DNA of 64,000 nucleotides from Parcubacteria group bacterium GW2011_GWA2_42_14 (lineage in GTDB: Bacteria; Patescibacteriota; Minisyncoccia; Sungbacterales; GWA2-42-14), in NCBI GenBank assembly GCA_000998135.1, contig LCCV01000005.1, positions 157-64,156 on the forward strand, given 5' to 3'. Below, piece after piece: positions 37,358 to 44,558 of this stretch (within the stretch, counting starts at the first letter, position 1; each line of letters starts with the position of its first letter). Made by a program: the position numbers and the translations under genes. The notes beneath the pieces were generated by a model. The model searched no databases. It had not been told where the DNA came from and was given only the letters and a program-made list of their open reading frames with translations.

Positions 37358-37378
37358 TCCTATCTCCCGTGACATCGC
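37358..37378 (-). repeat. secA-3'-end-like element, copy 1; encodes I-K-R-C-H-G-R-stop, immediately upstream of the NUDIX ATG
   Basis: Reverse complement AAGCGATGTCACGGGAGATAGG aligns with the true secA terminus at 41824-41845. Confidence 0.75.
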
Positions 37379-37408
37379 TTGATTTATAACATCAATGGTG
37401 TTAGAGAT

Positions 37409-39019
37409 TTACAATACCTTCGCTTTTTGTAAAACTCGACGAACAGAATGGGGATAATTATGTACTTTCGCGAGAGCAGAAGATGCCTGTTCCTTGCTAA
37501 TGAAACCCACAGTAACTTCTCGTGCCAATCGTGTCGTATCTGGATGAAACCCGAGCATACGTTTTGCCTTACTTTCCGCGGCTCGCGCAAAAAGGCAAGA
37601 ATTTGCGTTGGATTCAATTAATCTCTCGCCTCGCGGAATTTTCCAGCCTAATTTTCTTAAAATTCTTTCCGTATCTTCTATTTTACGCTGAAGCAAAAAT
37701 GGCAAATGAACAATATATACGGGTGGCTTATTCTTAAACGGCTGCAATTTCCTTATAGCAGAGAAAATAAACTTTTTCGACTCACTATCTTGGCTTAATC
37801 CAGCCCATTCGTTTATACCAAGAATAACCACTTTTACTCCTCGCTTCAATGCTTCACCATAATATGCGCGGACGACGAGCCGTCTGCATAACTGACATGT
37901 TCGCACAAAAGGAATTTTATGCTGGCATTTAACTGAATAATGCCTACGTCCTTCCACATACCATTTCCGAAACTTCTCTTTCAGCTCTTGGGAATCACGC
38001 TCATTGTATAAATCTGATGTCTTTCGGAAACATATTCGATCAACTGAGCGCATGTATATTCTGGCATCTATCTTTTCATAATCTACTTTTAGCTTTTTAG
38101 CCACTGTTTTTGCCCGCTGGAAAATATGTTTCGGATAGTATCCAGTATCTAATGAAAAAGTAAGCGGTATAAAACCCATTTGCTTTGCAGTGTACAAAGT
38201 TGCAGTGCTGTCCTTGCCGCCAGAAATTCCGACCATGGCATCATGTTTCTCTTTTCCAGAACCCCTGAGTGAGAGTAAAAATCTTAATTCTTTTTGCAAA
38301 ACAGCACCGCTGAAATTTTTCTCGTATTTCTCGCAAACATCGCATAATCCATATTTACCAATAACACTGGATAAATTTGAACTTGTGTTAACGCATTTTT
38401 TGCATTCTGCCGCCCCAATCAATGCTTTGATTTGAGCAGCAATCTCTTTCTTCGACGTAACAGCCGTATTGAAAGTAAGGTGCGCAATACGCTCCACCTT
38501 ATTCGTAGAAAACAGTCGTTCCTCAATTTGTCTTTCTTTCTCCGCATCTTTCTTTGAAAAACTCTCTCTCCTCGAAATCCTACCTGTTAAATATTTATCG
38601 GGCGTTTTAAGATATACGACCAAATATCCATTTTTCTTAAAATACATTGAATTTCTGAAACCGCGAATGCCCGCAATAATTAACGACTTATGAAAAAACT
38701 TTTTCCTGTGCAGATAAATAAGCGTTTTTGCAATAACAGCTGATGAATATTTGTTCTTAAGATAAACAAACATCTGCTGCGCTTCATCCCTCGAGAATTT
38801 CCGTTTATGGCGTAATTTCAATATTGCCCGAATAAAATCCGTCTCTCGCGGCGGCAGTTCTTCTTTTATTGAGATAGCTGGATATATTACGGAGCTGGAT
38901 GCTTCAACATATTTCGCTTCAGGAAAAATTTTAAGAAAAGATTTGGCAACCGTAGTTTTTCCGCTTCCTGGCGCTCCGAAAACAACAATGCCGTGAAATT
39001 TATTTATTTTCCTATTCAT
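37409..39019 (-). CDS. Fusion protein: N-terminal P-loop kinase-like NTPase plus C-terminal PP-loop ATP pyrophosphatase (TtcA/QueC/TilS-like) with Cys clusters
   Basis: GIVVFGAPGSGKTTVAKSF Walker A at the N-terminus. VGISGGKDSTATLY PP-loop in the C-terminal half. CDVCEKYEK and CQLCRRL cysteine pairs. Confidence 0.6.
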   Translation of the reverse strand: MNRKINKFHGIVVFGAPGSGKTTVAKSFLKIFPEAKYVEASSSVIYPAISIKEELPPRETDFIRAILKLRHKRKFSRDEAQQMFVYLKNKYSSAVIAKTLIYLHRKKFFHKSLIIAGIRGFRNSMYFKKNGYLVVYLKTPDKYLTGRISRRESFSKKDAEKERQIEERLFSTNKVERIAHLTFNTAVTSKKEIAAQIKALIGAAECKKCVNTSSNLSSVIGKYGLCDVCEKYEKNFSGAVLQKELRFLLSLRGSGKEKHDAMVGISGGKDSTATLYTAKQMGFIPLTFSLDTGYYPKHIFQRAKTVAKKLKVDYEKIDARIYMRSVDRICFRKTSDLYNERDSQELKEKFRKWYVEGRRHYSVKCQHKIPFVRTCQLCRRLVVRAYYGEALKRGVKVVILGINEWAGLSQDSESKKFIFSAIRKLQPFKNKPPVYIVHLPFLLQRKIEDTERILRKLGWKIPRGERLIESNANSCLFARAAESKAKRMLGFHPDTTRLAREVTVGFISKEQASSALAKVHNYPHSVRRVLQKAKVL

Positions 39020-41819: not shown

Positions 41820-41825
41820 ATTTTC

Positions 41826-44558
41826 CTATTTTCCATGACATCGCTTATACTTTTTCCCTGAACCGCACGGGCAGGGGTCGTTTCTTCCCACCTCACTAGT
41901 GAGACGCGGATTTGACGCTGATCCGCTATCCGCCTGCGAGCTCAAACCGCTGATTTTACGCTGATCAAATCCGGAAGAATTAATATCAGGCCGCCGCTCT
42001 TCAACTTTTCGAAACTGCGGTTGAGCCGCAACGCCGACCTTATATATAGTATTTACCACCTGCGAACGAATGGCGGCCCGCAGTTCCTTGAAAAGGCGCG
42101 AGCCCTCGTTTTTGTATTCAACCAACGGGTCGCGCTGGCCATAGGCGCGAAGGCGCACCGAATCCCGAAGATGCTCCATAATATCCAAATGATCCATCCA
42201 GAGCATATCAATAGTTTGTAATAAAACAACTTTTTCCAGATTTCTCATGCCTTCCTCGCCTATCAATTTTTCTCGTTCGTCATAAAAATTATTCAAAAAT
42301 TCAACCGCGTGTTCCTTGATTTTTTCCCGGCCGTCTTCTTCGTTTGATTCCTGCGCCAACTCTTCAAATTTTTTATGCAATCCATCCGCCAAACCACCTG
42401 TGGTGAGCGAAGCCGAACCAGAAATTGCCCTTATAGTTTCAGAAATTTCTTCAAGATTCCAATCGGAACGATATCCGGCAGTATGAAAATCAACAACCAT
42501 AGAAACTTCCTCCTGAACAAACTCCATGATTTTTTCTTTATGAGGATGGACGCCGCTTGCGGTGAGCGAAGTCGAACCGCGCAAAATTTCGTTTCTCAAC
42601 TTATACACAAAATTCCTTTGTTTATTCATCACGTCATCAAACTCCAAAATGTGCTTGCGGGAATCAAAATGAAAGCCCTCGATTTTGGCTTGTGCCGCTT
42701 CAATGGCTTTGGAAACCATTTTATTTTCAATGGGCTGGTCTTCGGGAATTCCGAACGACTCCATCATACTTTTTATCCTCTCCGACCCGAAAATTCTCAT
42801 AACTTCATCCTCCAGAGATAAGAAAAACTGCGTTGAACCGGGGTCGCCCTGACGACCGGCACGACCACGCAACTGATTATCAATACGTCTGGCTTCATGC
42901 CGCTCGGTGCCTATGACATGGAGACCGCCTGCCCCCTTAACCTTTTGGGCCTCTTCAATGCTCGGCGGATTCCCCCCCAAAATAATATCAACACCGCGAC
43001 CGGCCATATTGGTGGCAATAGTAACGGCCCCCAAACGTCCTGCTTGCGAAATAATATTTGCTTCCCTTTCATGATTCTTGGCGTTCAAAATTTCATGCGG
43101 GACCCCATCACGTTTAAGAAGCGCGCCCAATCGTTCGTTCTTTTCAATGGATACTGTTCCCACAAGAACCGGCTGACCCAGCTTATGCCTTTCTTTAATT
43201 TCATTAACTACGGCTCTCATCTTTCCTGTTTCTGTTCTGAATATAAGGTCCGGGGAATCGCGCCGTATCAGCTGTTTATTCGTCGGAATTATAATCACAT
43301 CAAGCTTATAAACCTTATGGAATTCCTCTCCATTGGTTGCCGCGGTTCCGGTCATGCCAGCGAGCTTGGCATACATCCTGAAATAATTTTGAAAAGTGAT
43401 GGTAGCGAGCGTTCGTGACTCCCTTTGAACCTGCACATTTTCTTTGGCTTCAATTGCTTGATGAAGCCCTTCGGACCATCTCCTACCAGGCATAAGACGC
43501 CCGGTAAATTCATCAACAATAATTACTTCGCCGTCTTTCACAACATAATCTTTATCCAGATGAAAAAGCGCTTGCGCCCTCAATGCCTGCTCCAGATACC
43601 GGACATATCTGAATCCTTTTTCCTCGTATAAATTTTTAATGCCAAGGATTTTTTCAACTTTTTCAATTCCAGGTTCGGTTATGGAAACTGCTTTTAATTT
43701 ATGGTCAACGTTATAATCATTGTTTTCTTCAAGACGCGGAGTTATGCGTGAAAAAGTTTTATATAAATCCGCTGATTCTTCGTCGGGAGCGGAAATTATC
43801 AAGGGGGTTCGCGCTTCATCAATCAAAATAGAATCAACTTCATCAACAATCGCGAAATTATGCTCTCGCTGGGATAAATTATTGATGTCATAGGCCAAAT
43901 TATCCCGAAGATAATCAAAACCGAATTCGTTGTTAGTGCCATAAGTGATATCCGCTCCGTAGGCTTCGTGCCGGGAGCAAGGCCTCCAATGGTCAAGCCG
44001 CGGGTCGCCATGCGACGGCTCTGCCTGAAAATCCGGGTCATAAATTCCCGAAAAATCATGAGCGATAACACCTACTGAAACACCAAGAGCATAGTAAACC
44101 GGACCCATCCACCCGCCACCCACGCGAGACAAATAATCATTGGGAGTAACCAAATGACATCCCTTGCCGGTTAAAGAGTTTAAATATAAAGGAAGAGTGG
44201 CCACCAGTGTTTTTCCCTCGCCGGTTCTCATTTCAGCGATTTTGCCCTGATGCAAAACAATTCCGCCGATAAGCTGAACGTCAAAATGCCGCTGATTTAA
44301 TGTTCTTCGCGCGGCCTCGCGAACAGCCGCAAATGCTTCGGGCAAAATGTCATCAAGCGTTTCTCCGCCCCCCAACGGTTCGGCTTCGCTCACCGCAAGC
44401 AATCTTTTCTTAAACTCAACGGTTTTTTGCTTAAGTTCATCCGCCGACAACTTCTGAAATTCCGGCTCAAGCGAATTGATTTGGTCAACCAAGGGCTGAA
44501 CGGATTTTATATACCGCTCATTGGAATCTCCTAAAATTTTAGACAGGATAGAAGACAT
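41826..44558 (-). CDS. secA: Preprotein translocase ATPase SecA
   Basis: [14 protein letters not shown] Walker A, conserved SecA N-terminus, and the C-terminal zinc-binding [15 protein letters not shown]. Confidence 0.95.
   Translation of the reverse strand: [910 protein letters not shown]

Follow-up and report, generated by a model that had tools for sequence, protein, structure and literature searches.

The secA terminus and its downstream copies

The DNA analysed here (the window) is a stretch of 64,000 nucleotides from Parcubacteria group bacterium GW2011_GWA2_42_14, a metagenome-assembled genome of Candidatus Sungbacteria (contig LCCV01000005.1, positions 157 to 64,156). It carries a secA gene on the minus strand (41826-44558, stop codon 41826-41828), behind which lies an array of short genes interspersed with copies of a sequence resembling the 3' end of secA. 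The genes of the region are on the minus strand, and the array is co-oriented with secA save for one antisense cassette. The features of the array, with the copies named c1 to c8, are listed in Table 1. Coordinates are those of the window, and labels of the form L### denote the secA or AAA_PP (AAA+/PP-loop gene) loci of the other genomes compared.

Table 1. Features of the array behind secA (ORF, open reading frame; aa, amino acids).
Feature	Position	Strand	Description
Whole array	34939..41849	-	secA tail (c4) / NUDIX_b (c5) / NYN / PRTase-CE + 53-aa ORF (c3) / antisense 70-aa ORF (c2) / AAA+/PP-loop (c1) / NUDIX_a-HicB-HicA (c7) / tRNA_bind-APH (c8), in the secA sense
c4	41826..41849	-	true secA 3' end; proposed anchor or attB-like core; NUDIX_b ATG 6 nt downstream
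c5	41272..41311	-	full ~45-nt element just past the NUDIX_b stop (TTTCCAT...ATGTTATGGAAAAT); 5' half + tail-like 3' half
c6	40475..40517	-	tentative long-variant copy past the NYN stop; 5'-half-like TTTTCCATCCGTATCCGCGCAC, then CTTCGGCGGGCTCAGG
c3	39542..39584	-	full element past the 53-aa ORF; 5' half + ATCAAGAGATGTCACGGGAGATAA; left junction of the antisense cassette
c2	39071..39115	-	decayed 15-codon secA mini-tail (CGWLLKKQRCHGNG-TAA); right junction of the antisense cassette
c1	37360..37404	-	element past the AAA+/PP-loop gene, 7 nt before the NUDIX_a ATG
c7	36290..36354	-	long-variant element past the HicA stop
c8	34939..34975	-	element overlapping the APH stop (TTTCCCATTGATACCGCATATTCAAAAGTGCCATGCC); distal end of the detectable array
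Antisense cassette, ~0.45 kb	39116..39541	.	hairpin terminator, 70-aa plus-strand ORF, promoter, ~80-nt block
70-aa GC-rich ORF	39282-39494	+	59% G+C in a ~40% G+C genome
Promoter TTGACA-18-TATACT	39203-39232	+	11/12 sigma-70 match
Conserved ~80-nt block	39116-39193		within the antisense cassette

PF02810 (SEC-C) is listed for SecA, and the motif C-x-C-x-S-G-x(6-8)-C-[HC] at the end of a full-length SecA was found for c4 only; the NUDIX_b start codon behind it is at 41817-41819. An earlier reading of the DNA from its letters alone (the sequence-only reading) had reported three further tail-like copies, and these are real: 37360-37380 (c1), 39071-39115 (c2) and 39542-39562 (c3). All three are non-coding remnants with upstream stops. 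The c1 copy encodes IKRCHGR-TAG (stop 37360-37362) with an in-frame TAA immediately upstream, and the NUDIX_a ATG beyond it is at 37350-37352. The c2 copy encodes NKENSCGWLLKKQRCHGNG-TAA (stop 39071-39073); it was correctly recognized, but its distance to the ATG of the kinase/PP-loop gene (39017-39019) is 51 nt and not 45 as had been given. The c3 copy encodes ...FPLVPHIKRCHGR-TAA (stop 39542-39544), and no same-strand gene comes next, only the antisense GC-rich ORF.

The copies had been judged at least 20/23 identical, which applies to c1 and c3 (22/23) and to the core of c2 and c4 but not to the other pairs (c1 vs c4, 18/21; c3 vs c4, 16/21). AGCGATGTCATGGAAA is common to c2 and c4 exactly, together with TGCGGTT 25 nt further 5'. 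When up to three mismatches were allowed, the 17-mer AAGCGATGTCATGGAAA occurred three times against 0.25 expected, and none of 100 shuffles reached three occurrences; c3 differs from this 17-mer at four positions. The order across c1-c3 is identical in three independent assemblies, and a fourth contig is 99.9% identical until its end inside the GC-rich ORF. Because independent assemblies agree, the arrangement is not an assembly artefact or a chimera. An A+T-rich sequence and a short core might have favoured chance similarity, but chance and artefact are both refuted by the shuffle statistics, the independent assemblies and the recurrence in other species described below, and their remaining probability is negligible. 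The repeated tail copies are thus real and non-random.

A 45-nt element ending in the secA core

The copies c1, c3, c5 and c8 have a further ~22 nt in common on the 5' side, which is not secA-like. The family to which they belong was found by aligning c1 and c3 with tail-like sequences before and after the AAA+/PP-loop gene in L166, and has the ~45-nt consensus TTTCCCATTnGTAyCGCAyATCAAnnnnTGyCAyGGnnnnTAR. Its 3' half is the secA tail core. Derivation of the 5' half from secA coding sequence was considered and rejected, a model of the 5' half alone having no match in secA; in part the 5' half (TTTCCCAT...) reads as the reverse complement of the core (ATGGGAAA). Copies of the element usually sit 0-10 nt past stop codons.

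Extending the search beyond the four original copies added c5, c7, c8 and a weak c6 in the window, which the sequence-only reading had missed, and more copies in relatives. The nhmmer E-values of c1 (5e-8), c3 (2.7e-11) and c5 (3.7e-7) are those of sequences from which the model was itself built; c5 had first been seen as a weak match (E=0.05) with a four-copy model that excluded it. The c8 copy is an independent match of the 5'-half-only model (E=0.03), and the APH orthologue in L177 is also followed by an element (16002-16048). The 5' half of c7, weak when taken alone, lies inside a block that aligns with L166 8760-9287, a segment ending in an element of that locus (element b). The c6 copy was spotted by eye and was not significant in nhmmer; its motif CTTCGGCGGGCTCAGG is also present in c7. 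At E<0.01 there were three matches in the window, four in L166, three in L176 (plus one weak) and three in L177, and every one of these matches, from four Sungbacteria species, lies downstream of secA and on the secA strand. No match at this threshold was found in the other 57 kb of the window, in the upstream flanks or in five other Sungbacteria-related loci (~100 kb total). Elements are thus present in other species as well.

The consensus forms an imperfect palindrome, with TTTCCCAT opposite ATGGGAAA. For a named two-helix structure and 14 copies, 66% of the cells were paired, against 30-47% in slid controls, whereas covariation did not exceed that of shuffle controls. RNAalifold gave no consensus structure for seven copies, and an Rfam scan of 36.5-42.5 kb at E<=1 gave no match. 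The only hit of a tRNA and transfer-messenger RNA (tmRNA) scan was the unrelated tRNA-Gln at 16.4 kb. Scans of viral contigs with the 27-mer of the conserved block and with the 5' half of the element yielded no match, so no phage or plasmid-like donor was found.

These properties bear on the idea that the element is a cis-acting intercistronic expression signal (an mRNA-stabilising or processing hairpin, a terminator or attenuator, or a re-initiation site), that the secA end carries the same signal and that the genes turn over by unrelated means. The position of the copies just past stop codons, the palindromic consensus, the better folding of some single copies than of shuffles (z of -2.4 and -2.0) and the ~79% identity of c1 to its L166 orthologue in the 3' half would agree with such a role. 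We nevertheless regard it as unlikely: consensus structure, covariation above shuffles, Rfam match and T-run are all lacking, the copies are confined to one locus and do not occur in operons in general, and displaced tails beside old neighbours as well as a split element (see below) would be left unexplained.

Hypervariability behind secA

SecA relatives at 88, 77, 71 and 63% identity were compared; scans of genomes and metagenomes with SecA gave no relative closer than ~68%, the closer ones coming from a protein-cluster search only. Upstream, the order MurB-GARS-HPF-secA is kept. Downstream, the gene content is almost wholly different, the only genes in common with the window being NUDIX_a (L176), APH (L177) and, reordered, AAA_PP and HicBA (L166). 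What is common consists of units with elements at their boundaries. The unit of c1 and NUDIX_a is conserved in L176 behind DUF218 (window 37409-36868 vs L176 15075-15616, 86.5%), APH with its element is also present in L177, and L166 has AAA_PP and HicBA, each with its element, in the opposite order, its AAA+/PP-loop protein being 80% identical to that of the window. The left and right flanks of the core are reassorted: in one L176 element a normal 5' half is followed by the right flank which, in the window, stands after c2, and within L176 the flank ATAAAAACATACCAACATTCTC follows two different left parts.

Tail remnants are also found in more distant genomes. Among 135 loci with a SEC-C-tailed secA, the pattern K-x-C-[HC]-[GV]-(0-3 aa)-stop occurred on the secA strand 12 times downstream and twice upstream (one of the two being a genuine 181-aa SEC-C ORF), and on the opposite strand never downstream and once upstream. 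The downstream tail remnants are short frames closed by upstream stops. They were found in L022 (Saccharibacteria) and in the metagenome contigs L085 (twice), L086, L091, L103 and L119, with SecA 51-66% identical to that of the window; a similar remnant (...AGCHGK-stop) lies 63 nt past secA in L003, another metagenome-assembled genome of Patescibacteria, and falls outside the pattern count. The genes inserted between secA and remnant vary from case to case (GT2 + PMT_2; a methyltransferase; Nudix + Nudix + Ham1), and none encodes a recombinase.

Two C-terminal types of SecA exist in Patescibacteria (L166 8140-8208; L022 14900-14982; L177 13720-13794), the longer of which is CPCGARHSDERPIKYKHCHGA; the Pfam SEC-C model is not listed for this longer tail in L166. 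The remnants in L022 and L177 belong to the other type of tail (...GATKSDGKPIKYKHCHGA), the one with which the actual secA of L166 ends, whereas the current tails of L022 and L177 are of the standard type. Hence the displaced tail was not copied from the current one.

The sequence-only reading had explained the copies by repeated duplication or gene conversion of the junction between the secA end and a NUDIX gene, that is, by copying of a segment with the secA tail and the NUDIX start several times within the genome. In favour of such an origin, c1 and c4 are alike through the stop, an AGGA-like spacer and ATGAAT; gene conversion within the genome would also be compatible with the 16-mer that c2 has in common with the present secA tail and with the CGA (Arg) codon in c1, c2 and c4. 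However, NUDIX_a and NUDIX_b are not recent duplicates, as identity between the two proteins is no more than 37%, over a stretch of 57 aa that amounts essentially to the Nudix box, and the like junction TAG-GAAAAnATG also precedes an unrelated 147-aa gene in L177. In addition, the 5' half of c1, c3, c5 and c8 is absent from secA, orthologous copies in other species are attached to other genes, and remnants are of a different tail type. As the sole explanation local duplication is largely refuted, and on the whole we consider it quite improbable.

Filled and uninterrupted sites

Two comparisons, both between species, show the same site with and without an insert. In L151 the secA tail is followed by a hairpin and a Y1_Tnp gene, whereas in L103 the order is secA, a 0.42-kb cassette, a decayed tail, a homologous hairpin and the Y1_Tnp gene. 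The hairpins of L151/L103 (CACTTGGACAC vs CACTTAGAAAC) are homologous, with paired substitutions. The layout of L022 is that of L103 with a 2.3-kb insert (GT2 + PMT_2). From these layouts it follows that the remnant once formed the end of secA and was pushed away by inserted DNA which supplied a new one.

The second comparison concerns the window itself. L176, from the closest other species (SecA 88%), has an uninterrupted element (14305-14350) followed by a spacer of ~70 nt. The left side of c3 aligns with the left side of this element, and the part of c2 that lies 3' of CATGG, together with the 51-nt intergenic region (39020-39070), matches its right side. An element of the L176 type has thus been split by the 0.45-kb antisense cassette, and c3 and c2 mark the two ends of an insertion that went into a core copy which the array already contained. 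The remark that the orphan copy c3 sits where the GC-rich cassette lies was therefore right and informative.

The right end of the antisense cassette consists of the promoter, the ~80-nt block and the 15-codon fossil secA tail. The ~80-nt block also has a tail copy next to it in L103 (79.8% over 84 nt) and L177 (78% over 129 nt), where the cargo is unrelated (a 69-aa ORF; HAD + PrcB_C), so that three genomes, the window included, have this cassette end (block plus mini-tail) adjacent to a tail copy while their cargo is unrelated. In the c2 mini-tail only 2 of ~46 nt distinguish the window from L177, though the secA genes are only 71% identical (DNA). As to the cargo of this cassette, the 70-aa ORF has an AAGGAGG ribosome-binding site and a hairpin terminator (region 39182-39540) and no Pfam, NCBIfam or PADLOC family match. 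Its context is constant in nine contigs, and the contig of one assembly ends inside the ORF.

Probable cassette accretion at the secA 3' end

Taking into account the copies themselves, their polarity, their restriction to the DNA downstream of secA, the hypervariability there and the two site comparisons, we think it probable that the copies are attachment-site copies (scars, possibly still usable) which bound cassettes inserted successively at the secA 3' end. The chromosomal target would be the last ~20 nt of secA, which encode the zinc-finger end K-x-C-H-G and would be kept by protein-level selection. An incoming cassette would bring its own copy of the core; a crossover within the core would regenerate an intact secA end and leave another core copy at the distal boundary of the cassette, before the former neighbour of secA. 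Repeated rounds, including insertion into core copies of the array, would lead to the order gene - core - gene - core; the ~45-nt element terminates most cassettes of Sungbacteria. The simplest mechanism would be conservative recombination of the Campbell type, in which the secA tail core (or one of its copies) crosses over with the core on a small circular cassette. Such site-specific recombination would presumably depend on a recombinase encoded elsewhere, and promoterless cassettes may be expressed by read-through from secA.

The sequence-only reading had also proposed that the copies could be a portable module for translational coupling or for recombination. The recombination part is supported by the occurrence of the same core with different flanks across genomes and of cassettes between regenerated and displaced tails. 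Stop-start coupling (TAG-N6/7-ATG) is plausible where a cassette immediately follows the true stop of secA; at the remnants it cannot apply, as these are mini-frames with upstream stops and no start codon.

Several observations weigh against cassette accretion. All assemblies of the window species agree, which leaves neither an empty site nor a different cassette content within the species, nor were circular cassettes seen. In the Pfam lists, neither an integrase nor a recombinase gene appears within ~10 kb of any array examined, and the only recombinase of the window, a Ccr-like large serine recombinase (9304-10647), lies in a separate island 31 kb off. The hairpin potential of the element is not accompanied by covariation, and the full element was found in only four Sungbacteria species, all metagenome-assembled. 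Finally, some breakpoints are off the core: L176 has a 14-nt start stub of AAA_PP (14400-14425, ATG changed to ATT) before DUF218, and a leader is common to unrelated ORFs (see below), hence other recombination also shapes the region.

Recombinase and Y1 transposase genes

Among the genes called within ~10 kb of secA there was no tyrosine recombinase in the window species, L166, L176, L177 or L179. The possibility that the intervening genes are recent mobile cargo with an integrase of their own was rejected, no recombinase being present. The protein encoded at 9304-10647 scored 114 bits against an NCBIfam cut-off of 900. The island in which it lies (83-16480, beside tRNA-Gln at 16408-16480) encodes this Ccr/XisF-like large serine recombinase, a ParB-like protein and a 1371-aa protein, and also a C5 DNA methyltransferase with a Vsr-like gene (3992-5408).

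Y1_Tnp genes (PF01797, IS200-like) lie directly behind the secA tail or remnant in L103 (6500-7217), L151 (11238-11747) and L022 (14990-15727). They are flanked by two or three copies of a perfect 23-25-nt palindrome, one apparently inside the ORF, in a layout resembling that of REPtrons, units of repetitive extragenic palindromic (REP) sequences with a RayT transposase. The palindrome is lineage-specific, e.g. CACTTAGAAAC-n-GTTTCTAAGTG. The copies behind secA might accordingly be REP-like palindromes spread by a RayT/IS200-type Y1 (HUH) transposase on single-stranded DNA, for which the secA end would be a preferred target. The Y1_Tnp genes with their palindromes and the fact that the Sungbacteria element is itself an extragenic imperfect palindrome speak for this idea. 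We consider it very unlikely, as no Y1_Tnp-like motif was found in the window, L166, L176 or L177, the sequence of the palindromes at the Y1 genes is unrelated to that of the 45-nt element, dispersal of the elements is not seen, and target stretches of 20-45 nt are not duplicated in peel-and-paste Y1 transposition. The features of a REPtron are thus present around the Y1_Tnp genes of L103, L151 and L022, with a different palindrome, and not in the window species, where the elements are found only in the 7-kb array and the Y1 motif is missing.

Comparison with known systems

The staphylococcal cassette chromosome (SCC) elements (SCCmec, pseudo-SCC and the arginine catabolic mobile element, ACME) target the last ~15-20 nt of rlmH/orfX, including the stop, in staphylococci, and regenerate the gene end. 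Direct-repeat sites flank each element, tandem accretion leads to composite islands, and many units rely on a recombinase in trans. The array behind secA resembles them in that direct repeats with the terminal nucleotides and stop of the target gene flank the units and the gene end is regenerated. It differs in the size of the units (0.45 to ~2 kb, mostly a single ORF), in the target (secA) and in the extra 5' half of most sites, and no unit of the array carries a Ccr large serine recombinase.

Integrons and clusters of attC sites lacking integron integrases (CALINs) share with the array the co-oriented, mostly promoterless single-ORF cassettes behind a fixed anchor, with a content that varies between relatives. 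A short, imperfectly palindromic site after each cassette and toxin-antitoxin cassettes (HicBA here, DUF6922-AbiEii in L177) are further likenesses. In contrast to integrons, there is no intI beside the first site (within ~10 kb of secA). An attC site has 57-141 nt, the core sites R''(RYYYAAC)...R'(GTTRRRY) and a folded bottom strand, whereas the element here has ~45 nt and neither core site. The anchor is the coding end of an essential gene and not an attI next to intI, and anchor and site have ~20 nt in common as opposed to 7 nt in integrons.

Prophage e14 and phage 21 at icd, and islands at tRNA and tmRNA genes, supply a new 3' end and leave the original as a pseudo-end, and tandem arrays of them occur. 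The replacement 3' end, the displacement of the old end to the far junction and the tandem arrangement are likewise seen behind secA, but the islands at icd and tRNA genes are of 10-100 kb and have their own tyrosine integrase beside the att site. In the pdif modules of Acinetobacter plasmids the 28-bp XerC/XerD sites alternate in orientation. These modules are also small, often carry toxin-antitoxin or accessory genes between short sites, do not encode a recombinase and presumably rely on a host enzyme for their movement; all copies behind secA, on the other hand, are direct and without a dif-like dyad.

By analogy, the arrangement appears to work like SCC composite islands, integrons or CALINs and islands at icd or tRNA genes, but it departs from each of these systems in the very features that define them. 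It may best be described as the tandem addition of cassettes behind the 3' end of a conserved gene, and the chance that an integron-like system with a new type of site is at work is considerable. A bolder proposal, which we put forward tentatively and do not favour, is that of an integron-like gene-capture system, previously undescribed, in Patescibacteria. In such a system the secA 3' end would play the role of attI and the ~45-nt imperfect palindrome, which rebuilds the terminal octamer of secA (ATGGGAAA paired with TTTCCCAT), that of attC; promoterless cassettes would be expressed by read-through and stop-start coupling, and the recombinase would be encoded elsewhere and belong outside the integron-integrase lineages. 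The papers searched gave no description of secA as an integration target or att site, nor of integrons or such arrays in Patescibacteria.

Genomes of the candidate phyla radiation (CPR) are tiny, and their gene acquisition is poorly understood; a hotspot with site copies behind a universal gene would provide a concrete signature that can be searched for, including remnants that annotation pipelines would overlook. It would make the spread of natural mini-cassettes (Nudix, NYN, PRTase, toxin-antitoxin, glycosyltransferases, small antisense ORFs) traceable, and makes it testable which enzyme recombines a 20-nt core in the coding end of an essential gene.

Cargo genes and other observations

Matches of the array cargo to defence-related models were weak. 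The 10 kb downstream of secA contain three genes for Nudix hydrolases (31534-32037, 36858-37352 and 41319-41819), and Nudix and Ham1 genes recur in the inserts behind secA in L085, L086 and L176. In L177 a 42-aa C-terminal fragment of a His_Phos_1 protein (14883-15008) is located upstream of APH, and in L166 the ~0.5 kb between secA and the first element (8215-8700) looks like a frameshifted peptidase C39-like pseudogene (...CGPAVLKMVLAFHG...).

A promoter-like TTTACA-16-TATAAT followed by a G+C-rich hairpin and a T-run (CCCCAGCCAGCCGAAAGGTCCGCTGGGGTTTCATTTTATT) is found at 41116-41203 on the minus strand of the window and at 13643-13714 in L176. This leader, which has no Rfam match, shows 81% conservation in the two species but stands before ORFs that are unrelated (NYN vs LDcluster4); homology of NYN and LDcluster4 was considered and rejected despite the common leader. 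It could be a leader/attenuator or a small RNA.

The 536-aa product of the AAA+/PP-loop gene (37409-39019), a fusion of AAA+ kinase-like and PP-loop (QueC-like) parts, is 47-80% identical across many CPR phyla and DPANN archaea. Its gene context, compared at the window locus, L169, L171 and L173-L175, differs nearly every time. The view of this gene as a foreign cassette is only partly right, since it encodes a widely conserved CPR/DPANN protein present at many element-free loci. L169 and L171 have a different conserved sequence of ~40 nt in common just past the AAA_PP stop (TTGGnnGCGAAAAAATTnTGGCCTCnCGCGA).

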